Below, piece by piece: positions 9,120 to 57,784 of a DNA stretch of 64,000 nucleotides. A program made the position numbers and the translations under genes. The notes below the pieces were generated by a model. The model was given only the letters and a program-made list of their open reading frames with translations. It did no database searches and was not told the origin of the DNA. Numbering within the stretch: the first letter of the stretch is position 1; each line of letters begins with the position of its first letter. Origin of the DNA: Halobacteriovoraceae bacterium (GTDB lineage: Bacteria; Bdellovibrionota; Bacteriovoracia; Bacteriovoracales; Bacteriovoracaceae); NCBI GenBank assembly GCA_963719505.1, contig CAVRCF010000001.1, positions 256,001-320,000 on the forward strand. Reading direction: 5' to 3'.

Positions 9120-9194
9120 TGGAATGTGGCGCAGTGGTAGCGCAGTAGACTGTTAATCTATTGGTCGTGGGTTCGAATCCCTCCATTCCAGCCA
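9120..9194 (+). tRNA. tRNA-Asn (GTT)
   Basis: Acceptor stem tggaatg/cattcca, anticodon arm gtaga-ctGTTaa-tctat, T-loop gttcgaatc, G73 and encoded CCA. Confidence 0.96.
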
Positions 9195-43158: not shown

Positions 43159-43761
43159 TTATGACTTTACTTTCACCCAGTGTCTATTATCGACTTGAAT
43201 AATTCTTCCTTCTCCACCAAAATGTTCTGAAGTTTCTGGCTTTTTATAAATAGCCACAATTCTTTCGGGAAAGTCCCTCTTCTCTTCGAGAGTTATCTCT
43301 GTTAGATCACCGTTTTCGTTATTTGTCAGTGGCGTCCCTGAAGGATATTTTTTATCAACGTAAGCTAAAACCCAACCGGAAACGGCGATGGGAACTTCTC
43401 TTTCAAAACGCCCACTTCCTACGACCATGCCAAAGGTATCGGAGGCAATTCCTATCACACTGAGCTGGCAACGAGAAGAACAGATTTCAGCCCCCTCATA
43501 AGTATCCACATAACACTTACCTGGAATGAGTTCTCCTTTAAGTTGTTGGAAATCTGCATAGTCATTCCAAAGAGCATTCCAGACACCATCTTGAACATGG
43601 AGTTGGGCTGTCCCAGCTGCATTCCAGATACCGAGGTGGTTTCCCGTATCAGATGGGGACCAGTTTCCCGTTCCAGCGGTATAAGTCCCCTTCTCGATCG
43701 CTATCTCTGAGGCACCAGTACCAAAAGTTATCTTATTTAATTTATCAGATAAAATACCCAT
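43159..43761 (-). CDS. Phage tail-fibre/tailspike C-terminal chaperone-like protein (peptidase G2-like)
   Basis: WNDYADF...VIGIASDTFG...PIAVSG.V...W.KV pattern recognised from phage fibre C-termini; not searched. Confidence 0.55.
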   Translation of the reverse strand: MGILSDKLNKITFGTGASEIAIEKGTYTAGTGNWSPSDTGNHLGIWNAAGTAQLHVQDGVWNALWNDYADFQQLKGELIPGKCYVDTYEGAEICSSRCQLSVIGIASDTFGMVVGSGRFEREVPIAVSGWVLAYVDKKYPSGTPLTNNENGDLTEITLEEKRDFPERIVAIYKKPETSEHFGGEGRIIQVDNRHWVKVKS

Positions 43762-43763: not shown

Positions 43764-44990
43764 CTATTTCTCCGCCTTTTTCTCAAGTTCAAGAAGTCTT
43801 TTTTCAAGATCATCTTGTCTTTTATTAAGCTCTTTAATCTGAGTGGACTTTGATTGATTTTCTTTATCTACTTCTTTTAAAGCCTGAAGTAAGACCGCAG
43901 TCAACTGAGGGTACTTCACTACCAGGTAACCATCACTGGCAATACTTACCAGAGATGGAAACTGCTTTTTTATCTCTTGGGCAATAACACCAATATCATC
44001 TTGATCATTTGATCTCCATTTATAAGAGACACCTCGAAGCTTCTTAACCTTAGCAAGAACACCTTTTAAAGTGTGAACATCCCACTTCAAACGTCTGTCT
44101 GACTTAAGCTCCACAGTGTGTGTGTCCTCGATGACTAAGTCGCCATCAATTGTTGTTCCCCCAAATATATTTGTCACTCCATTAATGGTCGTCTGTCCAT
44201 TGACAGCAAAGGTGCCGTCTATTTGAACGGGACCATATAATTCAGCCCCCGTATTATTTGTTGGTGGAGGAAGAACAGGAGTTATAAAAGGCTTCGATAA
44301 GACAGCTCGCCCATTGGGAGCCAAGTCATAGCAGTCACCACCACCATCTCTTCCCGAAGGCAGGAAGGTTCCACCAATACTTTTACATACGTAATCTGCA
44401 ATTGTAGGAAGACTATTACCAGTTGCAGCTGTTGAACACTCAACAATAACGGGATCACCTGAGCCATCATCAATCGTTCTTACATTTAAAAGAATCTTTT
44501 TTGTAATTTCCTTAGCTCCAAAGACATCATCAGTTCTATCGAGGGTGACTTCGAAGTGTGTCCTACCTGTATCACCGGCATTAATATTGGCTGCTGGTGC
44601 CACAGAAGAATCAAGGGCAAAGCTTAAAATTTTCACTCTTGTACTGCCAATCATAGAGGTTGTACCAGCTGTAAAAACTGGTGTTCCATCAGCATTTAAG
44701 ATTTCTGTGATTACTCCCGCTGGAACATTATTTGGGTTGTGAACACCTGATGTTGGAATACTCGCGGGTAAAATTGGACCAAAAGTTTGTCGACAAGCTT
44801 CTTTGTCTCCAAGGACACTTCTAATATTATTGATGATCTCTATTGAATCAAATTTAACTTCTGTGGTTTTGGCACTTTTATTTTGAGTTTCTGACATCTT
44901 CATCATTGCAAGTTGGGCAATTGCCATAATTGCAAGGCTAATCATAACTTGAACAAGTGAAATCCCGGCCTGTGAGAGCTCTTTTTTCAT
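43764..44990 (-). CDS. Type IV pilin-like protein fused to a C-terminal peptidase S74 intramolecular chaperone (trimeric fibre/adhesin)
   Basis: AG|ISLVQVMISLAIMAI prepilin-like N-terminus; SDRRLK.DV...L.GV.YKW...IGVIAQE....P.LV...V.Y..L..VL..A.KE plus coiled coil. Confidence 0.8.
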   Translation of the reverse strand: MKKELSQAGISLVQVMISLAIMAIAQLAMMKMSETQNKSAKTTEVKFDSIEIINNIRSVLGDKEACRQTFGPILPASIPTSGVHNPNNVPAGVITEILNADGTPVFTAGTTSMIGSTRVKILSFALDSSVAPAANINAGDTGRTHFEVTLDRTDDVFGAKEITKKILLNVRTIDDGSGDPVIVECSTAATGNSLPTIADYVCKSIGGTFLPSGRDGGGDCYDLAPNGRAVLSKPFITPVLPPPTNNTGAELYGPVQIDGTFAVNGQTTINGVTNIFGGTTIDGDLVIEDTHTVELKSDRRLKWDVHTLKGVLAKVKKLRGVSYKWRSNDQDDIGVIAQEIKKQFPSLVSIASDGYLVVKYPQLTAVLLQALKEVDKENQSKSTQIKELNKRQDDLEKRLLELEKKAEK

Positions 44991-45029
44991 AGTTTTAAAC
45001 CTCAATTAATTTTATGGTACAATAATAAC

Positions 45030-45368: not shown

Positions 45369-46895
45369 TTAATTGAGATAGTTTTCTTCAATTAATTCTT
45401 TGAGACTCTTTAATTCTTCATACTGGTTTTCTAAAAGAGTAGAGAAAAATTGCTTTTCTTCTTGAGTATAGAAGTCTTGATCTTGGATAGTCTCTAAAAC
45501 CTTAGGTCGATCTATATCGTTTATAAACTCTAACGCACAAAGAAGAGTACCTCTCTCTTTCAAAAATATGAAGAGCTCCATAACGCTCTGGCATCGATTT
45601 CGAGTGTTACTTATCAAAACTCCACTTCCAAAGTTATTCTCAATAAGCACATCACAACACAGTTCAATCTTTCCCTCTTTATTCCTCTGTCCATTATCAA
45701 AGACTATTCTTATGGACTGTGCATCTCGAAATGAGTTCGCAATCAGATGATCAAAAAGAAGCATTTTTGTGAAAAACGTTGACTCATTCCTTTCAACATA
45801 AAGGTTTAATTCATCAAGAAGAATGTCCATGCTCTTTTCTTGTTTTTCAATTCTGTTTTCACTGAGATAGGCCAGAGGGTCCATCTTATAGATTCTGTCT
45901 ATCCCTCGAATATCATCCGTTAATAAAAATAAAGTCTCATTAAATTTAACCAATTCACTCTTTTGAGTTATAAGACCAAGTTGTGTGGCAATTAAACTTC
46001 CTAAATGTTGGCATTTTATATATTCAATCTTTTGAGTAAAGTCCCTAAAAGGTGTACCAATTTTTTTCAAATGATAGACTCTGTTTGAGGTAGACTCTAC
46101 GACTTGTATATAATCTGTTTCAGCATCAATAGTGTTCTTGAAAAGGGGGGGAATACGAACATAATCTTTCTCTTGTATTCTAATAACAGCTGGAAATTCA
46201 TCATGATAATTTCCAGTTATTGCTTTATGTTTTGGTAGGTTAAGTTTACAGTCCTGATAGTACTCAAGCCATAACTGCGCAAAACGAGGCTCTACCCGAT
46301 TCGTTAGACAAATTCCATTTGTGTAGTGAATACCTACAGGTGGCTCTAGTTGGTTTTGTTCGCCAACAAGATAATTCCAGTTTTTAGGAAGACATCCAAT
46401 ACTTTCAAGGCTTGGAAGCCAAACGAATTGGTGGAGATCTAAACCACTTGCTTCATTAATATATTTAGGGGTTAGACTTTTGCATTCTCCGCAGTTGAAA
46501 AGCATGAGGCTTGACCAATTTTTAAATTGATAATCTTCCTGTAAACAAGCATCTTTTTTCACTTTCTGAAGTGGGACATAGTCGTGCTTACAGACCATTA
46601 AGCTGAATTTTTCATCAGCGAAATCAAAGATTTTAGTTATATCTTGCGTGAAGATAAAGTCACAGTCGCAATAAAGACTCCAACCTTCATAATTTGACAG
46701 GTATGGGACCAAAAAGCGAGTTAATGAAAAATCCGAGGATTCATGCTTCGTCTTTGGTCTAGAATATTCAGGCAACTGTTTCTTCAAAATTGGTGTGATA
46801 GACAACGGTTCTTTTGAGTTTTGAAGAAGGCTCTGTATCAAAGCATGTAATGCTGGTGCTTCAGATTCATCATACCCTATAAAAATTTTTTTCAT
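45369..46895 (-). CDS. GT-A (GT8-like) glycosyltransferase fused to a degenerate HipA/PI3K-like kinase region
   Basis: KIFIGYD..E, S.DFS.TRFLVPYL.NYEGW..YCDCD (DxD), KNWSS.MLFN, WNYLVGE; C-terminal LFDHLIAN..R. Confidence 0.7.
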   Translation of the reverse strand: MKKIFIGYDESEAPALHALIQSLLQNSKEPLSITPILKKQLPEYSRPKTKHESSDFSLTRFLVPYLSNYEGWSLYCDCDFIFTQDITKIFDFADEKFSLMVCKHDYVPLQKVKKDACLQEDYQFKNWSSLMLFNCGECKSLTPKYINEASGLDLHQFVWLPSLESIGCLPKNWNYLVGEQNQLEPPVGIHYTNGICLTNRVEPRFAQLWLEYYQDCKLNLPKHKAITGNYHDEFPAVIRIQEKDYVRIPPLFKNTIDAETDYIQVVESTSNRVYHLKKIGTPFRDFTQKIEYIKCQHLGSLIATQLGLITQKSELVKFNETLFLLTDDIRGIDRIYKMDPLAYLSENRIEKQEKSMDILLDELNLYVERNESTFFTKMLLFDHLIANSFRDAQSIRIVFDNGQRNKEGKIELCCDVLIENNFGSGVLISNTRNRCQSVMELFIFLKERGTLLCALEFINDIDRPKVLETIQDQDFYTQEEKQFFSTLLENQYEELKSLKELIEENYLN

Positions 46896-46908
46896 CCTTC
46901 CCTCCATC

Positions 46909-47829
46909 TCAAAGCACTGTATTGTCTATAAGATTTCGATAGCCATTACATGAATAATCAACAGATTTTACCTCCCGGTAATGCTCTGTTAAGCAGTGAC
47001 CCAAGTAATCACAATTCGAACAAAATTGATTAGAACGCACACGATTTTTTTCTTTTTCACACCAAGTTTCATAGTCTTTAAATTTATCTAACTCTAAAAA
47101 GAATTCTTTATCTGAATTATCAAATTCTAAAACTGCGAATTTTCCTCTGGGTGTAATATAAATATGATTATCAGAAAAAGAATTATTAGCTTTTTGTTTA
47201 GCCTGACGAATTAAATCTAAATTTACAAACTGAAAGTTCTTTTTTACTGGGCACTCAATCCACTTTGTGACAAATTTTTCAAATTCTAAATCGCTTACAC
47301 TGAAAGCATTGGCTTGATTAGTAGAATAAGGTTTTATTTCAACTGAGCTGATATTTCCTATGGAGTTAAAGGTTCGAATCATTTGCTCAACATCCTTTTG
47401 TATGAGCTTCTCTGAGGCCAGCATAAGAATAGATACATTTTTGTCGAGACTCAAAATATTTGAAAGAACTTTTTCGGATTTCTCCCTTGCATCAAAGTCA
47501 AACGAAACCGAGAGGCTAACATGCTTGTTTAGAAAAAATGGATTTATGATTGAGAGATTTGTAATAATATTAACGGCAGGGTCTCCAAACTCCAATAAAA
47601 TGTTATCAATTTTCTGAAGATACTCATTTTTTAACAAGGCAATTTCACCGCCGTATAGATCAACTTGTTCTATCTCATAGCCTGCACTTACAATCTCATG
47701 AAACATTCCTGAGAGTAAATTTATATCAAGCTTTTCTTTATCTGCTAGCTCGCTTGTGGTCAAGTAACAGAACTCACAACGAAAATTACACAAATAAGTA
47801 GGATTAAGAGAGACAAAAATTTTCTTCAT
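46909..47829 (-). CDS. Radical SAM protein with truncated SPASM-like C-terminus (rSAM-1)
   Basis: CNFRCEFC, LYGGEI, C-terminal CSNCDYLGHCLTEH...C. Confidence 0.92.
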   Translation of the reverse strand: MKKIFVSLNPTYLCNFRCEFCYLTTSELADKEKLDINLLSGMFHEIVSAGYEIEQVDLYGGEIALLKNEYLQKIDNILLEFGDPAVNIITNLSIINPFFLNKHVSLSVSFDFDAREKSEKVLSNILSLDKNVSILMLASEKLIQKDVEQMIRTFNSIGNISSVEIKPYSTNQANAFSVSDLEFEKFVTKWIECPVKKNFQFVNLDLIRQAKQKANNSFSDNHIYITPRGKFAVLEFDNSDKEFFLELDKFKDYETWCEKEKNRVRSNQFCSNCDYLGHCLTEHYREVKSVDYSCNGYRNLIDNTVL

Positions 47830-48829
47830 TACTCTCTCTTTGTGCAAGTTTTAATATTTGTGGCTCTAAGGTTTTCATAAGTGAACAGTGCTGTTCGACC
47901 ATATTGTGATTTTTGTGATCACTGATTGTCTTTTTACATCCGTTACAGATATCAAACATTGGGCAGCTTAGGCACTCATTTTTCATACTAAAAATACTTG
48001 GTTCATTTTTAAGGGGCGTGACGAGGTCTCCGCTCATTTCATTTTCAAAGTCAATAGAATACTCTTTATCGTCCCCGAAGGCGCCACAACTATAGTAGTC
48101 CCCGTCCGGTTGCAGGCACCTAATACCAGAGTCACAACTTCTATTTCTTGGACAAACTGTTTTTTTATTTTTGACTGTTTTCATTAACTCTTTACTATTG
48201 AATTCCCAATTAAATAAATTTAAATCTATAATCTCAAGGTATGTTTTATATATTTTCGAAAGTTGATAAGGTTTAGACTCTCTTCCACTAGCCATTGAGT
48301 AATTTAATTTGCACTCAATATTTAAACTCTTAGCCAGTCTTACATTATTAATGGCAAGGTGTTCATCCTCATCCGTAACAACACTTATAAAGTCAGGGTA
48401 GTAGCCAAGATAAGATTTAAATTTTTTCATAACATCGAGAAAAATTTCTTCAGTATAGATTTTTTTCTTACTAATCCTCCTCCCATTTCCGTAGTTAAAG
48501 GATGTAGCAATATTCACTCTTGGGTGACGAAAGAGATCTATCCATTTTTCAGGTTTTTTATAAAAGTCCCACAAGTTACTGGTAAAACTTATAGACGTTC
48601 TCATTTCTTTTTTATCTAAAAAATTGATAATCTTCCAATAATAGTCAGGGGAAACCATAAGCGGCTCTCCTCCGTTAACTATAATGGTATTGGTTTGCGG
48701 AAACCGATCTAAAAACTGATTTATTCTGCTTAAATCAAGTAAAGTTTTTTTGTCCTCGGCCAGCGTCGGTGAGCTACAAAAGGTGCAGGCAAAATCACAA
48801 ATGTCGGTTGGCTTTATAATTAAATCCAT
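47804..48829 (-). CDS. Radical SAM/SPASM protein (rSAM-2)
   Basis: CDFACTFC, NGGEPL, C-terminal C..C...PDGD.YSC...CLSCPMFDICNGC...C. Confidence 0.93.
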   Translation of the reverse strand: MDLIIKPTDICDFACTFCSSPTLAEDKKTLLDLSRINQFLDRFPQTNTIIVNGGEPLMVSPDYYWKIINFLDKKEMRTSISFTSNLWDFYKKPEKWIDLFRHPRVNIATSFNYGNGRRISKKKIYTEEIFLDVMKKFKSYLGYYPDFISVVTDEDEHLAINNVRLAKSLNIECKLNYSMASGRESKPYQLSKIYKTYLEIIDLNLFNWEFNSKELMKTVKNKKTVCPRNRSCDSGIRCLQPDGDYYSCGAFGDDKEYSIDFENEMSGDLVTPLKNEPSIFSMKNECLSCPMFDICNGCKKTISDHKNHNMVEQHCSLMKTLEPQILKLAQRESNEENFCLS

Positions 48830-48833
48830 AGCA

Positions 48834-49451
48834 TTACTCTACTTTTATTTTAATATCAATTCCAATGGATATTCTATCAGTTCTTGACGCAAGTGGGTGA
48901 ACCCAGTGATTTAGATAGGATGGAAAGATTAATAGCATTCTCTCCTCTGGCTTTATATTTACTTTCTCCATATTCCCAAAAGGAAGAGACATCCCCATGC
49001 CGGGAACTGGATTAAGGAATTCTATGGTCCCACCTATCCCCTTTGTTTGTGGAATTTGGCAGAAATATGTACAAGTAAAAGTTGATTGGGGATGAACATG
49101 AGGCACAACATAGTCTCTATCTTTTTGTACAAGGGCCCATCCTGTCTTTTTTATCTCAGTATTATTTACCATCGAATCATCGATCACTGGGTCTTCATGA
49201 GCTGAGAATTCATCTTCCTTTGTCCAAAAAGAGTAGAGTACATTAAAGTGCTCATTAATGATTGCATTAAGTTTTTCTATACACTTTGGTGGTTTAACAA
49301 GAAGATCGTGTTTTGAGATCCAAGCTTTAGACTTATCCTTCGACTCAAGAGCCTCTTTCATCAAAAGGTACTCCTTAATCTCTTCGTTTAAATAAGCTGG
49401 CACAATCTCTTTTTCAATAAGAATAGCAGTCGGAAAAAAAGTTTTAATCAT
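48834..49451 (-). CDS. Putative 2OG-Fe(II) oxygenase (TIGR02466-like)
   Basis: W..V......PHVHP....TY......G.IEF..P...P....L.IFPS.L.H.V.....RISI. Confidence 0.82.
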   Translation of the reverse strand: MIKTFFPTAILIEKEIVPAYLNEEIKEYLLMKEALESKDKSKAWISKHDLLVKPPKCIEKLNAIINEHFNVLYSFWTKEDEFSAHEDPVIDDSMVNNTEIKKTGWALVQKDRDYVVPHVHPQSTFTCTYFCQIPQTKGIGGTIEFLNPVPGMGMSLPFGNMEKVNIKPEERMLLIFPSYLNHWVHPLASRTDRISIGIDIKIKVE

Positions 49452-49452
49452 C

Positions 49453-50478
49453 TCAAGTGACCTCGTTATAAAATTCTTTCAGAAAACAATCTACCGTATT
49501 CCTCTGCCTAGAGGCAAAGTCAGCTGCTACGAAGCAATACAATCCACATCGGTCTAGGTTTTCACAAGATAAGCAACCTTGTGAACTTAGGAACCGTTCA
49601 GCCATCTCACCAACTGTATCTTTATTTGGTAAACCAAGGAAACTCTTAGGGTTGTAATCTAGATACTGACAATTAGAGATAGAGTTGTCAGCAGCGATTA
49701 ATATCCTATTTTCTGAACAGCATTGAATATCATTCGTCTCGTTTTCTAAATATCCTTTTATAGGGTGAGATTCAGGATAATATTTTGCCAGATAAAGTAG
49801 GGCTTGCTTACAGTCTAAATCGCTTGGATGAAAAATATTACTATTTTTTAAGTCCGGAACATACCAATCAAAATTAACCGGAAAGTTTTCATAACAATAG
49901 TCAAAAAGGTGATCCCTTTTTTTGAGCATCGATTGAATCGATAATTTGTGAAGTGTTACAGATATTGAGGCTATATAGTCTGAAAAAATATCTAAGTTAT
50001 CTCGAAAAACAGCTTTTTGTCTTTCGTCCCAACTCCTACCTGCAAAGTCAAAAGATGTTTGCAAGGTTATATTAATTTTATGTTCTCGAAATCCATCGAG
50101 GAACGCAAGAACCCTATCTGTTTTTTCGAATATTAAATTCGATGTGAAACTAAATACAACTTTTTTATTTTCTAGTAATGAATTTATTTTAAAAACAAAT
50201 CTTTTATATTCATTGAACCAACTGTCACCATACTGGTCTTGAAAAAGCTCTCCCCCCATCAAGTTAACAGAAAAACTGTCCCAAGCGTTTCTCTTTTTTG
50301 CTATGAATCTTTCAACAAGTAGATATTTTTCATCAATCGTTACTCCTTCAACCCCTTTCATGCTGTGGTCTTGACAACAGAAAGAGCATGAAAGATTACA
50401 GTCTTCAAACAAGTGAATTTCTATCTCAATTGTACTTGAGTGTTTCTTTGATAGAATTTTATTTGTTACATATGACAT
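49453..50478 (-). CDS. Radical SAM/SPASM protein (rSAM-3)
   Basis: LFEDCNLSCSFCCQDH, NLMGGELF, C-terminal CLSCENLDRCGLYC...C. Confidence 0.92.
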   Translation of the reverse strand: MSYVTNKILSKKHSSTIEIEIHLFEDCNLSCSFCCQDHSMKGVEGVTIDEKYLLVERFIAKKRNAWDSFSVNLMGGELFQDQYGDSWFNEYKRFVFKINSLLENKKVVFSFTSNLIFEKTDRVLAFLDGFREHKINITLQTSFDFAGRSWDERQKAVFRDNLDIFSDYIASISVTLHKLSIQSMLKKRDHLFDYCYENFPVNFDWYVPDLKNSNIFHPSDLDCKQALLYLAKYYPESHPIKGYLENETNDIQCCSENRILIAADNSISNCQYLDYNPKSFLGLPNKDTVGEMAERFLSSQGCLSCENLDRCGLYCFVAADFASRQRNTVDCFLKEFYNEVT

Positions 50479-50479
50479 A

Positions 50480-50998
50480 TTATTTTTCCAACTCAGGTGC
50501 AAAGAAGTCAAAGCTCAATAATCTTCTCTCCTGACTTGTCGCAACAACTCGATGTTCAAAGTTTTTCGACTGATTTAAGAGAACTAACATTTCTGGCTTT
50601 GGATAAACCTCACAAAAAGTGTCAAGACTTCTCACTTGCAAAGATCCGCCGCTATCTTTGTCCATATCATCTAAATAGAAAAGGCATGTTAAGTTAAACT
50701 TTTTGCTTTTTAAGTAATCGTTATGCCAGTTGTGTGAGTTTTGATCAATGCCTTTCCAAAGGCCAAAAGAATGGGGCTTTATATCCTTGAAATGTAATTT
50801 TAAATAGTTATCAAGTAAATAATCTTGAACTTTTTCAAGGCCAGATCTTTCAAGAGCACTTATATTTTTCTGAGAAAAACTTTCGCGTGCATTTGTAAAG
50901 ACACAACTTTTTAAATCGATCAATTGTGAAATTGAACTATCTTGAGCACAGTAGAGTCCCTCTATAATAAATTGGTTAAAATTTTCTATAAAGTTCAT
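50480..50998 (-). CDS. 2OG-Fe(II) oxygenase (prolyl-hydroxylase-like)
   Basis: WHND...LFYL......GG.L......P......L....FEH.V.....R (HxD...H...R). Confidence 0.85.
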   Translation of the reverse strand: MNFIENFNQFIIEGLYCAQDSSISQLIDLKSCVFTNARESFSQKNISALERSGLEKVQDYLLDNYLKLHFKDIKPHSFGLWKGIDQNSHNWHNDYLKSKKFNLTCLFYLDDMDKDSGGSLQVRSLDTFCEVYPKPEMLVLLNQSKNFEHRVVATSQERRLLSFDFFAPELEK

Positions 50999-51020
50999 AA
51001 ATCCGCATCAATCCTTTTAC

Positions 51021-51048
51021 TTGTAAATGCTGTTATCTTGCCTATAAT
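51021..51048 (+). promoter_or_regulatory. Putative sigma70 promoter of the (CHxS)3-protein operon, within a divergent intergenic region
   Basis: TTGTAA-16 nt-TATAAT about 40 bp upstream of ORF 51089. Confidence 0.5.
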
Positions 51049-51088
51049 AATAGTATTAACCAGTTCTTAATGTAAATAAAAGTAAGGA

Positions 51089-51646
51089 ATGAACCATATG
51101 CCAGCTCCTACGAAAGCTTATATCATTAGTCGCTTCAACTCAGTGGTAGCTTCACTACCTTCACGTAACAACGCAACCTATCATGCAGGAAACTTTCCCA
51201 ATATCGCACAACGGACAAGACTTGGAGCTTTTCCACTTGGCTCGAGAACAGAGCCAAATAAAACTGTTGCTGATATAGGTGTTACTGGAATGATGGCGAC
51301 AAATATATTTGAAATACTACACAACCTTGCGATGGAACTAACACGCGTCAGAAAAGCGAGGAATGTGCACTTAGTTGACAACAGATCTGACAATGGGGCT
51401 GTTCATGCAGTTGTAGGCTCACCCACACTAACGGCTCTACATCCAAGGCATGCTCAGTACTTTGACTTTCCAGGAAGTCATAAAAACGTCGGAGACCAAA
51501 TAAATCTTTCAGAAATTGAATCTTTTCTAAGTAGTCTTAGAACACGAGTACAGTACATAAGAAGCAGTGATGATCATTTATTTGAAATCGTCTCTTGCCA
51601 CTCAAGTTGTCACTCTAGTTGCCACGGTTCAAGAGCGAGAAGGTAG
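51089..51646 (+). CDS. Putative precursor/substrate protein with C-terminal SCHSSCHSSCHGSRARR
   Basis: Three tandem Cys-His-x-Ser units at the extreme C-terminus; first gene of an operon within the radical SAM cluster. Confidence 0.75.
   Translation: MNHMPAPTKAYIISRFNSVVASLPSRNNATYHAGNFPNIAQRTRLGAFPLGSRTEPNKTVADIGVTGMMATNIFEILHNLAMELTRVRKARNVHLVDNRSDNGAVHAVVGSPTLTALHPRHAQYFDFPGSHKNVGDQINLSEIESFLSSLRTRVQYIRSSDDHLFEIVSCHSSCHSSCHGSRARR
51593..51631 (+). repeat. 12-bp coding repeat x3 encoding (C-H-x-S)3
   Basis: tct-tgccactcaagt-tgtcactctagt-tgccacggttca; differences mostly synonymous. Confidence 0.85.
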
Positions 51647-51649
51647 AAA

Positions 51650-52378
51650 ATGCAAATGACTCACACAACAGCACCTTTATCAATGGAGCTTGTAAAAGAA
51701 CAATTTGAAAACAAAGAAATGACTTTTGTTATCAACTACAAAGAAAGTGAGCTTCAAGGAAAAAACCTTCTTGTCTATATTTCAAATCTTGAGCTCAATT
51801 GTGAAATTGATTTTCATTCGTGCTCTTTTGACAAAAGAGAAGAACTTATAAAAGAGTTTCTAAATGTTAATTGTATCAATAATATTAATTCACTTCGCCT
51901 CAATGCGGCTCATATTATTTTAGAGTTTATGGGTGTTGATTTCTCTGAAGAGATTCTCAACCCAGCTTTCTCAAAAAGTGAGATTCAAATTTTTATAAAA
52001 AATAATAAAGAAACTCTAGAAAAATGGAAAACATTTCTCCAATCAACTATGGTTTATAACCTTACATCTGTTAGTGCCGTTAATGAGGAATACAAGTTCG
52101 ATCAGATTTTCGAGACAGTTGATGACCCTTTTTATATCGGAAGAAATGTCGTCACACTCCTCTCTATTCCGACTTTTATGGAAAGGGTATACTCGATACC
52201 AGTGGAACAGGAGCTTTTTTATTTCAAGCAACAGTTTGAGGAGTGTATGTTTAAAGGCGAAAGTCTCTTTTATTATTTTTGTAACGAAGCAAACACTCCC
52301 TTTCTCATCTACAATATGCTCTTGACGGGTGATATGAGCATAGAAGAGCTTGAAGCAATTAAAACCCTAAAAGGCTAA
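51650..52378 (+). CDS. Hypothetical protein (cluster accessory)
   Basis: 242 aa; starts 3 bp after the precursor stop. Confidence 0.7.
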   Translation: MQMTHTTAPLSMELVKEQFENKEMTFVINYKESELQGKNLLVYISNLELNCEIDFHSCSFDKREELIKEFLNVNCINNINSLRLNAAHIILEFMGVDFSEEILNPAFSKSEIQIFIKNNKETLEKWKTFLQSTMVYNLTSVSAVNEEYKFDQIFETVDDPFYIGRNVVTLLSIPTFMERVYSIPVEQELFYFKQQFEECMFKGESLFYYFCNEANTPFLIYNMLLTGDMSIEELEAIKTLKG

Positions 52379-52379
52379 A

Positions 52380-53474
52380 ATGTTCAATCTTTTTAACGGT
52401 ATCTATCTAGATCTGGCAGATCGGTTTACATCTAAATACGACTACCTAACTGTTTCGACGACCAAAACCTTTCACCCCGCTGCAAAATACATAGAACAAG
52501 ACTTTGGTGAATCTCCCGCTTTTGATGACTATCTTGAAGAGAATTTTGATGCAGATGAAGATCGCTTTTGGCAATCACTTATAAACAAAGAAAAAAAGAA
52601 AAGCTTTGTCATCTATACTGACAGTGAGCTCTACCACCGGCTTCAACTTACCTTTTTTAAGAATATCTTTCCAAAAAGTGAAATAGATCAACTGCATAGA
52701 CTCTACAATTTCTATGTTTACAACGAACATATTCGCTCTAAGTTACAAGAAAAAAGAGGGGGAGAAAACCTAAGAGTCGATACGAAACACCTTCCTCACT
52801 ATACAGAAGAGGAATTTGAGCAGAAGTTGAAACAGCTTCCGAAACATAAATCTCTCTACTCCATGGATAAAGCATCACTTTGTTTTGAATTTTTGTTCTT
52901 ACAATATGTCATAGAAAGAGACTGCGTTTATTCTGCATATTTTTTAAAAAGAGTAAAAGACTTGTCTTGGAAAAATTGGTTCGAAGAAATTGGAGAGATC
53001 AGAACAGAAATCATTAACGGATTCTATCAACTCGACAAGATTTTAGATGATTCAAAGTTTAGTCTCGATGAAAACCTAGACTCTTTTCTTGCTAAAAATA
53101 ATCTAGAATGGATCTCTGACCTGAATCTTTACGGAGTTAACCCCGATTACTTCAAAAGAACATACAAGCCCGATGACTTTCTTAAGATTATCAATGCAAA
53201 AGATAAAATTGAATTTTCTTCAGATCAAGACTTCTCGGATCGCCTCACTAATAACTTCAAGACGAAAATGGAATACCTTTTCAGCGAGCGCTATGAAGAT
53301 CTTCTTTTGCTAGATGTGAAAGATTCTATTGGATGCTCCTTTACCAAAGGACAAATGCAAGCCAAAGTTAACACCTTACTTTTAAGTTACTTGTATTCAG
53401 TGGTCGATGGAAGGAATAGTTTTTTTGGTGAGACTCTCACTCTATCTGAAACAAAGTTGAGTCAAGATGAGTAA
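52380..53474 (+). CDS. Hypothetical protein (cluster accessory)
   Basis: 364 aa; tightly coupled on both sides. Confidence 0.7.
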   Translation: MFNLFNGIYLDLADRFTSKYDYLTVSTTKTFHPAAKYIEQDFGESPAFDDYLEENFDADEDRFWQSLINKEKKKSFVIYTDSELYHRLQLTFFKNIFPKSEIDQLHRLYNFYVYNEHIRSKLQEKRGGENLRVDTKHLPHYTEEEFEQKLKQLPKHKSLYSMDKASLCFEFLFLQYVIERDCVYSAYFLKRVKDLSWKNWFEEIGEIRTEIINGFYQLDKILDDSKFSLDENLDSFLAKNNLEWISDLNLYGVNPDYFKRTYKPDDFLKIINAKDKIEFSSDQDFSDRLTNNFKTKMEYLFSERYEDLLLLDVKDSIGCSFTKGQMQAKVNTLLLSYLYSVVDGRNSFFGETLTLSETKLSQDE

Positions 53475-54471
53475 TCCTGTTATCCTACAAAAAAAATCTG
53501 GAGATGGTGAGCTATTCGTCAATCTTTTTGAATGGTGCAACTTGAATTGCGATTTTTGTTGGCAGGATCATAATGACTGGAGTGGAATTGAAACCATTGT
53601 AGAAAGAAGCGTTGATATATTAAGCGCTATACGCAGTAGCAAAGAACCTCATTTTATTGTTAACCTTATGGGCGGCGAGCTTTTTGCCGATAAAATCCCA
53701 GATCAAACAATTTATGATTATTACAATATGGTTGAGGCTGTCTTCACGCAGTTGCCACCGAAAAAAACTATTGAAGTAAACTGGGTCACGAACCTTGTCT
53801 TCACAAAACTAGAAAGACTACAAGAGCTAGTCAATAAAACTCGAGCACTTGGCATTCAAAGCCGTATAACCACCAGCTTTGATTTTACTGGTAGATTTAG
53901 AAAAGCTTCGCGTCTTCTTTTTGAAAATAATATTAGAAAACTTGGATCAGAGGTGGGGACTATTTCCGTTGTCCTTACAAAACCTAATATAGAGAAGATG
54001 ATAAAAAACGATGATTCTTTATTCAAGGAACTTTACGCCCAAGGATTCTATTTTTATTTTGATTACTACTCACCAGAGAATAATTTCAAAGAGATGCTTC
54101 CCACCGATACACAACTTCAAGAGGGCTTATTATTTCTTCTTAGAAACTATCCAAATGTGAATCCCATTCAATCTTGGATTAAAAATGAATCAAACCCCAT
54201 GAGTTGTCAGTCCTCTATCGTCATAGACAAAGATGGTGTTAAAGGCAAATGTAAATCACTCGTTCCAGAAAGCATTAAAGTTGTATTAAAAAGTGAAAGT
54301 CACGACAATACCAATGCTGTTATGGAAGATCGTTTTAGTAACAAATACGACTGCATTAGTTGTGAATTCTACAAACGCTGTGGCATGGGATGTTTTTTGC
54401 AGCATGACTTCGATGGTTTTGAAACTCTTAGTGAATGTCTTTATAAAGAAATTTTTAGGAATATAACTTAA
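53467..54471 (+). CDS. Radical SAM/SPASM protein (rSAM-4), paralogue of rSAM-3
   Basis: LFEWCNLNCDFCWQDH, NLMGGELF, C-terminal CISCEFYKRCGMGC...C. Confidence 0.92.
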   Translation: MSNPVILQKKSGDGELFVNLFEWCNLNCDFCWQDHNDWSGIETIVERSVDILSAIRSSKEPHFIVNLMGGELFADKIPDQTIYDYYNMVEAVFTQLPPKKTIEVNWVTNLVFTKLERLQELVNKTRALGIQSRITTSFDFTGRFRKASRLLFENNIRKLGSEVGTISVVLTKPNIEKMIKNDDSLFKELYAQGFYFYFDYYSPENNFKEMLPTDTQLQEGLLFLLRNYPNVNPIQSWIKNESNPMSCQSSIVIDKDGVKGKCKSLVPESIKVVLKSESHDNTNAVMEDRFSNKYDCISCEFYKRCGMGCFLQHDFDGFETLSECLYKEIFRNIT

Positions 54472-55073
54472 TGTTTAATAAAGAGGCCGTCGAAATTCAA
54501 TATAACTCAAATGGCACCGTCGAAGAATCCTTTCGAACTCGTTCAAAAGTTGGAGAAGAGCTCTTAACACAGGCTCTAGCTCGCTGCTGTCAATTCGCGA
54601 TAGATAAAAAAGAAATAGAACTTATCTCCTATGCACCAAATGATGATTTGTCCGTCAAAGACCAAGCAATAGCACTCGTTTTTAACTCCGCAATTAGACA
54701 GAGTTCCCACCTAAGTGACTACCACGTCATAAAAGTAATGAATAATAATGAGAGTGTCTTAAAATGCTATGACAATGATTTTTGGAGACACCCAAACATA
54801 CCTCTACCAGTAAACGCCAGGCTTGCCCAACAGTTCGGCATTGGATTTTATCCTGATAACGAGGAGATTGACATCTATGACATGTACTTTTTTCATCACT
54901 CCCTTGAGGCGGTAGAAGATCACTTTAACCTTAATCTTAACCTACCAGATTTTGTTAAGGCTTATGGCTTCGGCCTCTATGGTGTTAGTTACAACTCAAA
55001 TTTAGAGGCTTTAAAATTGAAGAGATATTTTTACCCAAGTGACCCGCAGCTCAATAATCCTCAAGACCTATAG
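54471..55073 (+). CDS. Hypothetical protein (cluster accessory)
   Basis: 200 aa; TAATG stop-start overlap with rSAM-4. Confidence 0.7.
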   Translation: MFNKEAVEIQYNSNGTVEESFRTRSKVGEELLTQALARCCQFAIDKKEIELISYAPNDDLSVKDQAIALVFNSAIRQSSHLSDYHVIKVMNNNESVLKCYDNDFWRHPNIPLPVNARLAQQFGIGFYPDNEEIDIYDMYFFHHSLEAVEDHFNLNLNLPDFVKAYGFGLYGVSYNSNLEALKLKRYFYPSDPQLNNPQDL

Positions 55074-55673
55074 CAATCGAACTCCGACACTAAGTGTATA
55101 TCGATCTTTTTCAAAAGAATGAAAAGGTGTAGTTTTATGTTGAATATTCGATTTGCTTAAGTCCATCACGATAACATCAAAGTCAGCTGGAAGAAAACTA
55201 ACCTCTAGTCCTGTTGATTTGTCTCTAAAGGAAATGATGCCACCATCCTTTTTTTCGAGTGCAATTGGAATATGATAAATTAAAATCGTAAAGTCATCAG
55301 TAAATCTATCCCTACCATCGTTATCTGAATGCCACTCATTTCCAGCAGAACCATTCCAAACAGTTACACCCGATATTGTGTATCTTTTTAGGCCTATAAA
55401 TGTTGACGCATGTTTCTTTAAAAATTCCTCTACCCACCCTATAAAAGATGCATCTAGGTTTTTATCCTGAATAGAATCTAAGTCTGATTTATCCATTAGC
55501 GCTGCTAACTCAAAAGTTGATACAGGCACAGACTTCAGGTTAAACAAAGGAGATGATATCCACACGGAGGGATTAAAGAGTCCCCTAAATTTGCCTCTAT
55601 CCTCCAAGGGTAACCTGTAACGTGAATGTGCTAAATTTTTTACATCTTCAATAAGTTCCATCTTGTTTCCCAT
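55068..55673 (-). CDS. 2OG-Fe(II) oxygenase
   Basis: EWHSD...TILIY......GG.I.F......F.P......MD.....QH.......RY; start uncertain (55673 or 55661). Confidence 0.78.
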   Translation of the reverse strand: MGNKMELIEDVKNLAHSRYRLPLEDRGKFRGLFNPSVWISSPLFNLKSVPVSTFELAALMDKSDLDSIQDKNLDASFIGWVEEFLKKHASTFIGLKRYTISGVTVWNGSAGNEWHSDNDGRDRFTDDFTILIYHIPIALEKKDGGIISFRDKSTGLEVSFLPADFDVIVMDLSKSNIQHKTTPFHSFEKDRYTLSVGVRLL

Positions 55674-55729
55674 GTGTCCTATTATTGCATGAATTAGGGA
55701 ATATTGATATATTCTAAAAAAAGAGGGAT

Positions 55730-56806
55730 ATGCGCTTAGCCAAAGATATACAAATTTATTTAAAAACAACTGAGACCTGTAATCTTAACTGTAGTCATTG
55801 TTTCACAAGTGGAAGCAAAGGAAAAAAGATTTTCTTTAACCCCATAAAAACAGCGTCCTTTATTAAAAGTTTAAATAAGTCTGAGAATCTAAATTCGATG
55901 AGGATACTCTTTCATGGGGGAGAGCCTCTTTTAGCTCCAATAAAAGATCTTTATAATTTCTACGAAGAACTTCAAGACATCAAAAATATATCATTTGGTA
56001 TTCAAACAAACTTAGTATACAAGCTTAATCCCAAGAGGTTAAATTTTTTTAAAGATGTTTTAAAGCTAGAGGGGATTGGAACTTCATGGGATCCCAATAT
56101 TCGTTTTGGTTCAAATGGGTTAACAACAAAGGAACATGACCTTCACCTTTGGGAAACAAATATTAAAACTCTGGTAGATCTGGGTGCAGAAATAACCCTA
56201 ATGGTATCTCTATCAAGAGACGTAGTTGAATATTATGAGCCCAAGCAAATAATTGATTATGCTATTGAGCTTGGAATAAAGTATATACTTTTTGAAAGAA
56301 TAACGTTCGATGGGAATTCACAGGATAATGAAAATGTTCTTCCTTCCAACAAGAATTTAGACTTATGGATGCTTACTATGTACAAGCAAACACTAGAAGA
56401 TGATCGATTCTTAAAAATTGGAAATATGTTCCTAGACGAAATTGCTAGAAGCTATCTTCACGGAAACCACGTAGCGAATAGATGTAGAGGGTGTGAGCAA
56501 AAACTTATCACCATCAACGCCGATGGCACCCTCTCTGGTTGCCCCAACTCTGCCCCAACAAGTATTTGGGGTAGAATAGAAAAAGACCCAACCACCTTTA
56601 TTGCTTCACCTAAACGCACAGAGGCAATATGCAAAGAACAAATACGAAATTCCGTTTGCCTTACTTGTGAAGTAAATGACTTATGCAATGGCGACTGTTA
56701 CAAATTAAAATGGGATAAAGATATTTGTTCAGCTCCAAAAAGCTTATTTCAATTTCTCAAGACAACCGAAGGCTCTAAAAATTGCTCTAAGGTTCTCCTA
56801 ATATGA
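55730..56806 (+). CDS. Radical SAM/SPASM protein (rSAM-5)
   Basis: CNLNCSHC, FHGGEPLL, QTN, C..C...INADG..SGC...CLTCEVNDLCNGDC...C. Confidence 0.93.
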   Translation: MRLAKDIQIYLKTTETCNLNCSHCFTSGSKGKKIFFNPIKTASFIKSLNKSENLNSMRILFHGGEPLLAPIKDLYNFYEELQDIKNISFGIQTNLVYKLNPKRLNFFKDVLKLEGIGTSWDPNIRFGSNGLTTKEHDLHLWETNIKTLVDLGAEITLMVSLSRDVVEYYEPKQIIDYAIELGIKYILFERITFDGNSQDNENVLPSNKNLDLWMLTMYKQTLEDDRFLKIGNMFLDEIARSYLHGNHVANRCRGCEQKLITINADGTLSGCPNSAPTSIWGRIEKDPTTFIASPKRTEAICKEQIRNSVCLTCEVNDLCNGDCYKLKWDKDICSAPKSLFQFLKTTEGSKNCSKVLLI

Positions 56807-57255
56807 AAGAGTGGAAGTTAAGACAACAAATTTTTTCTCGTATTTTTTCAGATAAAAACCTAGGGGATAATCTCGACGAACAAGTTATCATTGAAGAGTT
56901 TGACCAGGAATCTATTCTTAAAAGAGCTTTAGAATATCCTTTTTCGAACAATGCGATTTGCCACTATCCAGGCAAGTCTTTTGCTATTGCTATTATCTTT
57001 TCTCTTTTGCTAGAAAAGCACTTCGGCGATTCTAGATTTAGCTATCTCTCAGACCCTAACCTTTTTATGGGAGAGGACCCTTACTTCATACCCTATACTG
57101 ATAGTAGGGATCTTTACGATAAGATCCTGGAAAGTTTTCCGGTAGAGTCGATAGATAGACCTGAGTCTTATGGACAAGACTTCCAAAAGACAGTGAATTA
57201 TTTTATGATGGAGTACTTGTTTCATGATGACACAAAAATGTTCGCCCCTTCTTAG
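56803..57255 (+). CDS. Hypothetical protein (cluster accessory)
   Basis: 150 aa; start overlaps the rSAM-5 stop region. Confidence 0.7.
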   Translation: MKEWKLRQQIFSRIFSDKNLGDNLDEQVIIEEFDQESILKRALEYPFSNNAICHYPGKSFAIAIIFSLLLEKHFGDSRFSYLSDPNLFMGEDPYFIPYTDSRDLYDKILESFPVESIDRPESYGQDFQKTVNYFMMEYLFHDDTKMFAPS

Positions 57256-57784
57256 TCCTAACCTCATTGATCAAATATTTTCTGATTCATGGCTCTATTC
57301 TGTTAATAGTTTTTTTATAATTGAGCCTCAGACAGGTTCTTATGATGAAAGGTTATTGAATGATAAAACTATGGTAGAGCAGGCTCAGCTGATCAAAGCA
57401 CAGTTTCTCTTAGGCTCAACGATAATAGTTAAAAACATCGAATCTTTTACTACCGAATTGAAGCGAAAATGTGAAGTCCTCGGCAAGGGGTCTATGGTTG
57501 ATGCACATATGTATTTGAATAAATTTAAAGAGTCTCTGTCTTTTGATTTCCACACTGACGAGACCGACGTTATCATCCACTTGGCTTATGGATTCAAAAA
57601 AATTGAAATTATCAAAGATGACATTGTTTCAACCCATACTCTTGCAGCTGGGGATGAATTATTCATTCCTAAAGGCTTAAAACACCGAGCGATTAATCTA
57701 GCACCATCTTGCTCTTTTAGTTTCGGTATCAAGGAAGATTCATTTTTTATTCCGGGAGGAATCACAAAGGATGACTTTTTTTAG
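57224..57784 (+). CDS. JmjC/cupin-4-like Fe(II)/2OG hydroxylase
   Basis: AHMY......F.FHTD..DVII....G.K......L..GD.LFIPKG..H.A. Confidence 0.78.
   Translation: MMTQKCSPLLSPNLIDQIFSDSWLYSVNSFFIIEPQTGSYDERLLNDKTMVEQAQLIKAQFLLGSTIIVKNIESFTTELKRKCEVLGKGSMVDAHMYLNKFKESLSFDFHTDETDVIIHLAYGFKKIEIIKDDIVSTHTLAAGDELFIPKGLKHRAINLAPSCSFSFGIKEDSFFIPGGITKDDFF

Follow-up and report, generated by a model that had tools for sequence, protein, structure and literature searches.

In a 64,000-nucleotide stretch of the genome of a Halobacteriovoraceae bacterium (GenBank assembly GCA_963719505.1, contig CAVRCF010000001.1, positions 256,001 to 320,000; hereafter the window), 15 tightly packed open reading frames (ORFs) at window positions 45369-57784 form a cassette of radical S-adenosylmethionine (SAM) enzymes, oxygenases and orphan proteins around a small protein with a repetitive C-terminus, here termed the tail protein. 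We propose, with a probability of roughly 0.6, that the cassette is a multi-enzyme system for post-translational maturation, in which the tail of a folded carrier protein is crosslinked and hydroxylated. The cassette is real, widespread and uncharacterised, and it appears to be previously undescribed. Its gene anatomy recurs across phages and bacteria and its tail is near-invariant; from these observations we infer that the tail is the substrate, together with the chemistry and the biological role outlined below.

The cassette is organised in three transcription blocks (Table 1; rSAM, radical SAM enzyme; 2OG, 2-oxoglutarate). On the minus strand, 2OG_b, rSAM3, 2OG_a, rSAM2, rSAM1 and a GT8-like glycosyltransferase fusion run from 50998 down to 45369; on the plus strand, the genes for the tail protein, orf8, orf9, rSAM4 and orf11 run from 51089 to 55073; and in the third block orf12 on the minus strand is followed by rSAM5, orf14 and a JmjC protein on the plus strand to 57784. 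A preliminary description of this DNA had listed all 15 ORFs, including five CxxxCxxC radical SAM enzymes, the JmjC protein and four orphans, and each was recovered at the position it gave. The tight coupling it reported, with divergence at the tail gene, is also borne out by the ORF coordinates, which give intergenic gaps of 1, 4, 1, 3 and 1 nt, overlaps of 44, 32, 8, 1, 4 and 32 nt and a 90-nt intergenic gap (50999-51088) at which the two main blocks diverge. When first start codons are taken, orf12 (TTG start) and rSAM5 share 40 nt at their 5' ends, in divergent orientation (window 55730-55769), so at least one true start probably lies further in. A promoter and terminator scan found sites no commoner than in shuffles (47 vs 49.6; 9 vs 10.7), and two 10-of-12 promoter-like sites facing outward in the 50999-51088 gap were not used as evidence.

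The tail protein ends in SCHSSCHSSCHGSRARR, its C-terminal stretch reading EIVSCHSSCHSSCHGSRARR in translation, and consists of a folded N-terminal domain (residues ~1-169) followed by the tail C170-HSS-C-HSS-C-HGS-RARR185. Twenty homologues recovered by a word-index search had nearly identical tails on bodies 24-73% identical to that of the window protein (41-47% in P0003-P0010 and P0012). When 61 tail-protein sequences from phage contigs, genomes and metagenomes were aligned (mean column identity, 14%), only M1, C170, H171, C174, H175, C178, H179, R182, R184 and R185 were invariant. A profile search of 1.84 billion representative proteins returned 885 clusters (formed at 50% identity) at E <= 1e-3, and 704 at E <= 1e-10. 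Among the best 150 of these 885 clusters, 142 tails ended in (CHxx)3RxRR, 1 had four repeats, 6 were RxRR-ending variants and 1 was incomplete; because tail columns form part of the profile, these clusters do not test the motif with full independence. Serine occupied the position two residues after histidine (His+2) in 123, 108 and 129 of 143 tails for the successive repeats, or ~84% overall. One metagenomic representative, P0193 (453 residues), carries an N-terminal Gly_rich_2 domain (PF21722, 43 bits) ahead of the tail-protein domain, and no Pfam domain was found in the nine other longer forms tested.

The tail protein itself matched no Pfam, NCBIfam (0 at E <= 0.1) or PADLOC model, and its PHROGs match covered the last 27 residues only. 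In an AlphaFold2 model, residues 1-169 were confidently predicted (mean predicted local distance difference test [pLDDT], 88.3; predicted TM score, 0.83) and the tail had a pLDDT of 53-58; this low confidence beside a confident body suggests that the tail is an exposed extension. Neither Foldseek against the PDB (best E, 0.6) nor VIA-align in wide mode (best Z, 4.1) gave anything convincing, a profile search against PDB sequences gave 0 matches at E <= 1, and BFVD returned uncharacterised phage homologues only. Searching the whole protein against isolated phages by tblastn gave no match, and the phage homologues were recovered via orf8, rSAM5 and the motif, because the bodies are too divergent outside the tail.

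Tail gene and enzymes are obligately linked, whichever of the two is taken as the starting point. IMG/VR was searched with a degenerate DNA pattern for the tail, which gave 31 matches on 30 viral contigs; all 31 end at a stop codon, in ORFs of 172-319 residues, and cassette genes accompany the tail at all 30 loci (rSAM5-like in 28 and orf8-like in 27), many of these stretches being limited by contig ends. A relaxed pattern, searched against 185,579 species genomes, gave 46 stretches, 8 of them chance or low-complexity matches and 38 genuine, and cassette genes lie within 8 kb of the tail at 33 of the 38. Three of the remaining five loci come from one Rhodobacteraceae bin, and two contigs, once extended, hold cassette genes; the extended contigs of this bin carry tandem tail genes ~5 kb upstream of rSAM5-rSAM2-rSAM1-orf14-rSAM3/4 (rSAM3 and rSAM4 being paralogues, as described below). 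The tail proteins on the Rhodobacteraceae contigs are short (125-140 residues) and lie ~5 kb from the enzymes, with no orf8 found by BLAST. Two tandem tail-protein genes are present in some loci (L010, L040, L048, L050, L059, L076, L154 and L155).

In the reverse direction, the best 80 of 132 viral contigs encoding an orf8 relative were examined. A canonical tail ORF is present in 79, and in the 80th the variant CHYSCFTSSCHFSRGRR is encoded directly upstream. Among 401 genomes of the window's phylum, orf8 is present in 17 and the strict tail pattern in 13 (15 places), all 13 falling within the 17; the reversed pattern, used as a control, gave 0 matches in the same genomes. The other four orf8-positive genomes carry variant tails (CHSNHCSHSNHGSRGRR, CHSSHSSHSSHSSRGRR, a two-repeat form and CNSNFICHSNCYTPPPKSRSRR), and the variant-tail gene directly adjoins orf8 in three of the four, an extra radical SAM gene intervening in G348. 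With a tail at 80/80 viral and 17/17 phylum orf8 loci, enzymes lacking a tailed partner, which the preliminary description had named as counting against it, were not seen.

Spacing and gene content are similarly regular. At most 60 nt separate the end of the tail gene from the downstream orf8 start in 110 of the 140 ORFs of the family, and 99 of 126 orf9 family members start <=60 nt after the orf8 end. Across the 80 orf8-seeded viral loci, rSAM1 is found in 70 and rSAM2 in 71, and local iterative profiles found orf9 in 80, JmjC in 72, 2OG oxygenases in 73 and orf14 in 61; these profiles, which also underlie the orf9 spacing and the family counts for orf11 and orf12 below, are open to drift, the fetched loci alone having served both to build and to search them, and only the three 2OG profiles shared ORFs.

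All five radical SAM enzymes carry CX3CX2C, at residues 20, 11, 38, 24 and 17 of rSAM1 to rSAM5, respectively. A SPASM-type CX2CX5CX2-3C motif follows in four of the five: rSAM2 has CDFACTFC at residue 11 and CLSCPMFDICNGC at 286, rSAM3 has CNLSCSFC at 38 and CLSCENLDRCGLYC at 313, and rSAM4 has CNLNCDFC at 24 and CISCEFYKRCGMGC at 296. SPASM-like Cys-rich C-termini had been claimed for all five, and rSAM1 is where this falls short: after CNFRCEFC at residue 20, it lacks the motif but has five cysteines past residue 200 (263, 276, 279, 285 and 300). In rSAM5, C17, C21 and C24 (CX3CXHC) and C255, C271, C310, C313, C319, C323 and C333 are invariant across 38 sequences. The enzymes thus show the generic features of the radical SAM/SPASM superfamily, CX3CX2C plus a C-terminal seven-Cys SPASM region, the seven cysteines being demonstrated for rSAM5. 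The Pfam Radical_SAM gathering score was passed by rSAM2 only (39 vs 29.5 bits; the other four scored 19.6-28.6 bits) and the generic SPASM model TIGR04085 by rSAM5 only (29.9 vs 27); all five matched phrog_1802 at E values from 2e-30 to 5e-56 (rSAM1, 2e-38; rSAM4, 7e-43).

Orthologues of these enzymes are present in jumbo phages. Identity is 45-51% for rSAM1 in RSL2, Atu_ph07 and DT01, 49-53% for rSAM2 and 36-37% between rSAM4 and its orthologue in RSL2 and Atu_ph07. rSAM3 and rSAM4 are 33% identical to one another (E 3e-53) and both match one single gene in phages. The two are therefore paralogues, one of the five radical SAM genes being a lineage-specific duplicate, and the "five" enzymes represent four conserved families.

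Searched against the PDB, the rSAM5 profile matched only peptide- or protein-modifying radical SAM structures: ChlB (best, E 1e-8), anSME over its full length, and CteB. The best NCBIfam matches of rSAM5 were anSME, PapB, DarE, YhhB and DynA, and no specific maturase cut-off was reached (anSME, 71 vs 349.45 bits for rSAM5; PapB, 57 vs 340; DarE, 54 vs 650). This agrees with the earlier statement that no known class fits; nor, with no specific NCBIfam model at its cut-off, did the enzymes fall into a known cofactor or nucleotide pathway, a second outcome that had been named as unfavourable. A complex prediction for the rSAM5 and tail-protein families scored 0.00 and was given no weight either way.

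The cassette also encodes three or four oxygenases. 2OG_a matches PF13759 (56.9 bits; cut-off, 27), TIGR02466 (43.2, below 62.5) and phrog_81 (E 2.8e-26), and 2OG_b matches PF13640 (31.8 bits; cut-off, 27) and phrog_19592 (E 4e-12), with two tandem 2OG_b homologues in RSL2. The JmjC protein matches PF08007 JmjC_2 (32.3 bits; cut-off, 22), with FHTDETD ... LKHRA readable in its translation, and its gene lies directly upstream of rSAM5 in phages. orf12 has no Pfam, NCBIfam or PHROG match; it is probably a divergent 2OG-Fe(II) oxygenase, given a weak BLASTP match to 2OG_b (E 4e-4) that aligns HxD...H (WHSDND/WHNDYL and IQHKT/FEHRV), and in a local profile search it falls together with the 2OG_b family, with 200 ORFs in common. 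Two of the three 2OG oxygenases proposed earlier, at 48834 and 50480, consequently pass Pfam, and the third, at 55068, is a probable case only. The P4H-type and ribosomal-oxygenase-like JmjC families to which the cassette oxygenases belong are best known for protein hydroxylation. The proposed glycosyltransferase fusion stands on phrog_28018 (E 1.8e-35), its GT8 match (PF01501, 17 bits on residues 31-137) lying below the 24.3 cut-off; GT8-like homologues adjoin the cassette only in L062 and L070 among genome loci and in 0/80 viral loci. On viral contig L114, a 642-residue ORF beside the cassette (5370-7298, minus strand) has, by eye, glycosyltransferase-like and P4H-like segments, recalling the hydroxylase-glycosyltransferase pairing of the window cassette.

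The best NCBIfam match of rSAM1 is viperin-like (41.5 bits vs a cut-off of 180). Together with the frequency of DNA-modification clusters in large phages and a basic tail (RxRR, His) like that of a nucleic-acid binder, this match bears on an alternative in which the cassette modifies nucleic acids, lipids or sugars, as in phage DNA hypermodification, and the tail protein is a regulator or nucleic-acid-binding accessory. We regard this as very improbable. The core lacks nucleotide-metabolism domains, peptide or protein maturases are what the radical SAM enzymes match most closely by structure and family, the oxygenases are of the protein-hydroxylase type, and in bacteria the cassette forms a chromosomal clade with housekeeping genes alongside.

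Four further proteins are orphans, and none of orf8, orf9, orf11 and orf14 has an NCBIfam match. orf8 matches phrog_20767 (E 7e-58) and is confidently modelled by AlphaFold2 (pLDDT 93.4). Fold searches gave nothing usable for it (Foldseek best E, 0.31; VIA wide best Z, 4.3, on residues 1-58 only), and its profile had 0 matches in the PDB; its likeness to radical SAM enzymes (ChlB, Z 3.5; anSME, Z 2.9; SuiB, probability 0.47) was set aside as too weak to use. In the ESM Atlas, the best orf8 match (0.83, DUF3800-like) lay below the useful range and orf14 had no usable match. orf9 matches phrog_36207 (E 2.6e-9) and orf14 matches phrog_20737 (E 2.3e-27), with orf14 homologues in RSL2, Atu_ph07 and DT01. 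orf11 has no Pfam, NCBIfam or PHROG match, and its family is present in 9 loci only.

Several properties point to the tail as the substrate of these enzymes. It is flexible, terminal and near-invariant, although the folded protein that carries it is divergent; it goes inseparably with protein-type oxygenases and with four radical SAM families, which are of the peptide-maturase type; and nothing in the cassette provides for release or export. The substrate would be the 16-residue C-terminal tail, (Cys-His-x-Ser)3-Arg-x-Arg-Arg, of a carrier of ~190 residues. On it, rSAM5, rSAM3/4, rSAM2 and rSAM1 would install crosslinks or C-C or C-S bonds at His, Ser and Cys, the two likely kinds being bridges from His to the residue at +2, as in the Hxs or triceptide systems, and Cys thioethers. 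The P4H-type 2OG and JmjC oxygenases would hydroxylate tail residues, His or Arg likeliest, and in the window lineage a hydroxylated residue may receive a sugar from the GT8-like enzyme. The most likely task of orf8 and orf9 is to hold or present the substrate, orf8 being a candidate substrate chaperone. As the cassette has no protease or exporter, the product would stay attached to the protein, forming a rigid, cationic, His/Arg-rich appendage that, by analogy with HxsA (discussed below), probably binds nucleic acid or metal in phage infection or bacterial predation.

Variant tails may indicate which residues matter, acting as natural experiments. The tail CHSSHSSHSSHSSRGRR is a pure HSS x4 form with one Cys, and its locus keeps all four radical SAM families; together with the preference for Ser at His+2, this suggests that the enzymes target His-x-Ser units, and Cys would add further links or ligate an auxiliary cluster. 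Variant tails lie at 7562-8170 in L161, 4310-4918 in L162, ~10111 in L163, 9294-9608 in L164 and 9296-9985 in L114. They include forms in which Cys is lost or the period is changed (CHSNHCSHSNHGSRGRR, CHSSHSSHSSHSSRGRR), forms with two repeats and forms with a Pro-rich insert, the enzymes being kept.

A number of observations weigh against a maturation system acting on the tail. Co-occurrence shows a functional link and not which partner is the substrate, and Cys/His arrays also bind metals unmodified. The N-terminal domain is conserved and well folded, which suggests a function of its own, more than that of a leader. The tail is also not uniform: Cys is lost in some lineages (for example, CHSSHSSHSSHSSRGRR and CHSNHCSHSNHGSRGRR) and Ser is replaced in others (for example, CHMDCHHARGRR and CHADCHYARGRR), so one fixed chemistry cannot hold for all members. 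Since no curated maturase family threshold was reached, the reaction type is not transferable by homology. No RiPP (peptide made on the ribosome and modified after translation) recognition element (RRE; PqqD), protease or transporter was detected by Pfam or NCBIfam in the 15 proteins, and a cryptic RRE in orf8 or orf9 is possible. Finally, radical SAM enzymes are oxygen-sensitive and 2OG and JmjC enzymes need oxygen, and a simple serial pathway therefore needs explaining.

Of the characterised systems, the HXS anti-phage system, described in 2026, is the nearest analogue; the cassette is alike in kind but is not a member. In HXS, two radical SAM enzymes, HxsB and HxsC, together with HxsD mature HxsA, which has five basic His-x-Ser repeats and gains 8 Da on an SHRSS motif; matured HxsA binds DNA and blocks phage DNA entry, and 99.7% of the systems are in Pseudomonadota, as defence (PMC13128918). 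The cassette shares with HXS a protein with basic tandem His-x-Ser units, and would share maturation by radical SAM enzymes and a small partner, modification at an HxS motif, and a product that stays a protein. However, HXS has two radical SAM enzymes and no oxygenases, whereas the cassette encodes four or five enzymes of the SPASM type along with three or four oxygenases, and its orphans number at least three. HxsA has a peptidoglycan-binding domain, N-terminal processing and export, whereas the tail protein has a different domain with no Pfam match, and its repeats, unlike those of HXS, are punctuated by Cys, lie at the extreme C-terminus and end in RxRR. HXS is a defence system of Pseudomonadota, whereas the cassette is carried by phages and Bdellovibrionota. 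Model searches agree. The tail protein did not match the HxsA model TIGR03979 (0 NCBIfam matches at E <= 0.1), although it has three HxS units; the HxsC model TIGR03977 scored at best 37.5 vs 267.9 bits, on the N-terminal 83 residues of rSAM2 only; the HxsB model TIGR03978 was absent among the matches listed, which for two proteins are the best 25 families (a rank at <= 28 bits); and the HxsD model TIGR03976 was matched by none of orf8, orf9, orf11 and orf14, the tail protein being without a Pfam domain. Setting HxsA-D aside, as had been done at the outset, was right for membership, and HXS is nonetheless the closest working analogue. PADLOC gave only weak pVip matches (<= 42 bits), on the radical SAM cores, among 10 proteins scanned; PADLOC-DB 2.0.0 dates from 2023 and predates the HXS paper.

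Triceptide radical SAM/SPASM enzymes (XyeB, GrrM, FxsB, YhhB and ChlB) act on repeated aromatic-x-x motifs. The His-x-Ser units of the cassette fit this pattern, and ChlB is the best PDB match of the rSAM5 profile. However, the cassette substrate would be a folded protein, with several radical SAM families plus oxygenases per cassette, and scores stayed below the cut-offs of YhhB (51.3 vs 445 bits), FxsB (43.7 vs 370), AmcB (44.7 vs 425), GrrM (22 vs 310) and XyeB (16.1 vs 450). In the QhpD/QhpG system, the gamma subunit of quinohemoprotein amine dehydrogenase receives radical-SAM crosslinks and a hydroxylation that are kept in the working protein. The presumed cassette substrate is likewise a small protein and not a released peptide, but the score to QhpD is 42 vs 453 bits, no dehydrogenase subunits lie nearby, and neither the tail motif nor the carrier fold is the same. 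For anSME, no sulfatase was found in the Pfam-examined ORFs and the tail lacks CxPxR. A heme-attachment reading of the tail (CX3CH) was dropped, with no signal peptide seen by eye and no cytochrome maturation genes nearby.

The cassette does not have the classical outfit of a RiPP pathway (a short leader-core precursor, a protease or exporter, an RRE): the tail protein is a folded 185-residue protein, and Pfam matches to such partners were not found. The original wording, "RiPP-like or protein-modification", therefore stands in its second half, protein maturation being the better description, given a folded protein as the presumed substrate and a cassette without a protease or exporter. The same observations bear on an alternative in which a small molecule, be it a peptide-derived redox cofactor or a secreted RiPP, is cut out of the tail, with the 170-residue body as an oversized leader. 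A near-invariant core with a large enzyme set is the signature of peptide-derived cofactors such as pyrroloquinoline quinone (PQQ) and mycofactocin; the cassette has both, its product-determining residues are at the extreme C-terminus, and its SPASM enzymes, 2OG-type tailoring and glycosyltransferase resemble such pathways. However, the conserved core has no peptidase or transporter, the N-terminal domain is conserved and confidently folded, unlike known leaders, and a diffusible cofactor without a partner enzyme is of no obvious use to phages. Scores to PqqE (27.7 vs 381.35 bits) and MftC (16.2 vs 265) are low, and the partner families PqqB/C/D and MftB/D/E were unmatched. An excised product is thus improbable.

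We next consider the distribution of the proposed maturation cassette. It is syntenic in the Ralstonia jumbo phages RSL2, RSF1, RsoM3USA and FLC4-type, the Burkholderia jumbo phages FLC6, FLC8 and S13, Agrobacterium phage Atu_ph07, Sinorhizobium phage Phosso and Pseudomonas phage pPa_SNUABM_DT01, which confirms an earlier mention of similar cassettes in large tailed phages. The order JmjC-rSAM5-tail-orf8/orf9-rSAM3/4-rSAM2-rSAM1-2OG-orf14 recurs in RSL2, Atu_ph07 and DT01, rSAM5 lies directly upstream of the tail gene in phages, and the tails read CHSSCHTSCHGSRGRR in RSL2, CHSSCHASCHNSRSRR in Atu_ph07 and CHTSCHTSCHSARGRR in DT01. The tail family as a whole spans jumbo phages whose hosts are pathogens of plants and animals, many uncultured phages of marine and freshwater origin, and predatory bacteria. 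Published gene lists for FLC6 (PMC8066314), S13 (PMC11898562) and DT01 (PMC8541153) include cupin, Fe-S oxidoreductase or radical SAM, and 2OG genes, in the passages considered, that correspond to the cassette. Jumbo-phage papers (PMC8066314, PMC5468394, PMC11898562, PMC8541153 and PMC12390700) offer annotations only, their relevant passages making no mention of a tail protein, motif or substrate. For phage 332-Vera, such a passage counts eight radical SAM genes, calls the number "highly unusual" and places DT01 among the two most similar genomes (PMC12390700).

In cellular genomes, 26 of the 38 genuine tail matches are titled as Bdellovibrionota lineages. A maximum-likelihood tree of 38 rSAM5 sequences has a clade of 13 rows (support 99/93) that holds the window, 11 Bdellovibrionota-titled rows and one unclassified metagenome-assembled genome (MAG). 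The other group of 25 rows comprises 21 viral contigs and four genome rows: a Rickettsiales MAG nearly identical to a viral contig, Vicingus and Marinovum MAGs that each pair with a viral contig, and a long-branch Bacteriovoracaceae. Judged by sequence and surroundings, the window copy is a chromosomal member of a bacterial cassette lineage, patchy in the phylum, and no recent prophage, because its surroundings are mostly housekeeping, its rSAM5 falls in a Bdellovibrionota clade and its source genome holds one tail gene. Most genes examined beyond the fibre/p200 pair described below have housekeeping roles (HPPK, acyl-CoA dehydrogenase, ETF, serine dehydratase, Mrp/NUBPL and SLT), and with the separate Bdellovibrionota rSAM5 clade this led us to reject a prophage origin. 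Tail genes with cassette enzymes also occur on L060 (a Dysosmobacter segnis contig), L065 (a Bacilli MAG), L078 (a Methanobacteriota MAG) and the Bacteroidota MAGs L070 and L033, the rSAM5 of L033 pairing with that of a viral contig. These Firmicutes, Bacteroidota and archaeal-MAG contigs may stem from phages or prophages that were placed in the bins of their hosts.

Next to the cassette, the window encodes a fibre-like protein and a well-conserved protein, p200 (Table 1). Homologues of p200 are 53-72% identical across three families of the phylum. It is present in 22 of the 401 phylum genomes, including 14 of the 17 that are orf8-positive, and 8 have p200 without detectable orf8; among these 14, 13 have it 4-14 kb from orf8 on the same contig, and G076 has it on the contig of the tail gene. 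The fibre/p200 pair adjoins the cassette in L077, L037, L046, L161, L043 and L058, and one source names a homologue after the peptidase G2 intramolecular-chaperone domain. The pair is possibly part of the system in Bdellovibrionota. An Mrp/NUBPL-type Fe-S transfer ATPase (PF10609, 309.6 bits; window 59646-60800, minus strand) lies 1.9 kb beyond the cassette and could be a cluster supplier to the five radical SAM enzymes or a plain housekeeping gene. The sole tRNA of the window, tRNA-Asn (GTT) at 9120-9194, is far from the cassette.

Table 1. Genes of the cassette and its fibre/p200 neighbours, in window coordinates
Feature	Position	Strand	Length (aa)	Remarks
p200, well conserved	43159-43761	-	200	
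Fibre-like protein, pilin-like N-terminus and C-terminal S74 intramolecular chaperone domain	43764-45005	-	413	PF13884, 51.9 bits
GT8-like glycosyltransferase joined to a C-terminal half with no family assignment	45369-46907	-	512	Accessory, lineage-restricted
rSAM1, partial SPASM or twitch-like Cys-rich C-terminus	46909-47847	-	312	Core
rSAM2, radical SAM/SPASM	47804-48829	-	341	Core, best conserved
2OG_a, 2OG-Fe(II) oxygenase	48834-49451	-	205	PF13759
rSAM3, radical SAM/SPASM	49453-50511	-	352	rSAM4 paralogue
2OG_b, P4H-type 2OG-Fe(II) oxygenase	50480-50998	-	172	PF13640
Tail protein, presumed substrate	51089-51646	+	185	From translation
orf8, orphan, obligate tail-gene neighbour	51650-52378	+	242	Core; phrog_20767
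orf9, orphan directly downstream of orf8	52380-53474	+	364	Core; phrog_36207
rSAM4, radical SAM/SPASM	53467-54471	+	334	phrog_1802
orf11, orphan, poorly conserved accessory	54471-55073	+	200	No library match
orf12, probable divergent 2OG-Fe(II) oxygenase	55068-55769	-	233	Weak likeness to 2OG_b
rSAM5, canonical seven-Cys SPASM	55730-56806	+	358	Core; TIGR04085
orf14, orphan core gene	56803-57255	+	150	phrog_20737
JmjC/cupin oxygenase, ribosomal-oxygenase-like	57224-57784	+	186	PF08007

Structural-gene neighbours in both Bdellovibrionota and phages keep alive a different reading, in which the tail is a metal- or Fe-S-binding element, either a structural component in a tail, fibre or baseplate (such as a trimer whose Cys and His stack around metal ions) or a metal or cluster donor for the many Fe-S enzymes, and the enzymes act elsewhere or assist assembly. 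Cys-His pairs at regular spacing are classic metal ligands, and His-coordinated metal ions are known in phage fibres and spikes. The cassette adjoins a giant "T4-like structural protein" in Atu_ph07 and lies near a "central spike protein" in DT01, and the radical SAM genes of 332-Vera are placed "in the large cluster of structural genes" in a passage of its genome paper (PMC12390700). The link to the fibre-like gene and p200 in Bdellovibrionota, the Gly_rich_2 domain of P0193 and the nearby Mrp/NUBPL ATPase fit the same picture. However, the enzyme set remains complete in lineages whose tails have one or two Cys, and a structural site leaves unexplained the inseparability from four radical SAM families, the conserved Ser at His+2 and the RxRR end. 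We therefore consider it unlikely that the tail serves as an unmodified metal site.

The structural neighbours also motivate the reading that a matured tail serves attack on Gram-negative cells. Extending the maturation proposal in this direction, phages and Bdellovibrionota might carry an offensive counterpart of HXS, the crosslinked, Cys-punctuated tail acting as a cationic or metal-holding "warhead" that travels with or is mounted on a fibre or baseplate apparatus and hits the Gram-negative envelope or DNA-entry path. This is a speculative extension that we hold to be rather unlikely. If it were true, such a tail could escort DNA, counter periplasmic gatekeepers or exclude rivals, and would represent a protein modification undescribed so far.

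The tail strings CHSSCHSSCH, SCHSSCHSSCH and CHSSCHSSCHGSRGRR were not found in the literature searched, which consisted of open full texts without supplementary files, and no description of the system was found there, subscription journals and supplementary files lying outside its reach. Radical-SAM-dependent maturation of ribosomal protein is already known, and the cassette would be a further case. The family is large, yet its central proteins have no Pfam or NCBIfam model. A near-invariant 16-residue target, four radical SAM families and three or four oxygenases promise new chemistry on His, Ser, Cys and Arg, and the cassette would explain the "highly unusual" radical SAM gene counts remarked on in jumbo-phage papers. 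The importance of radical-SAM-matured protein effectors in phage-host conflict has just been demonstrated, through HXS in 2026; a richer system, related in kind and on the side of the attacker, in phages and predators, would provide a testable entry to that biology.

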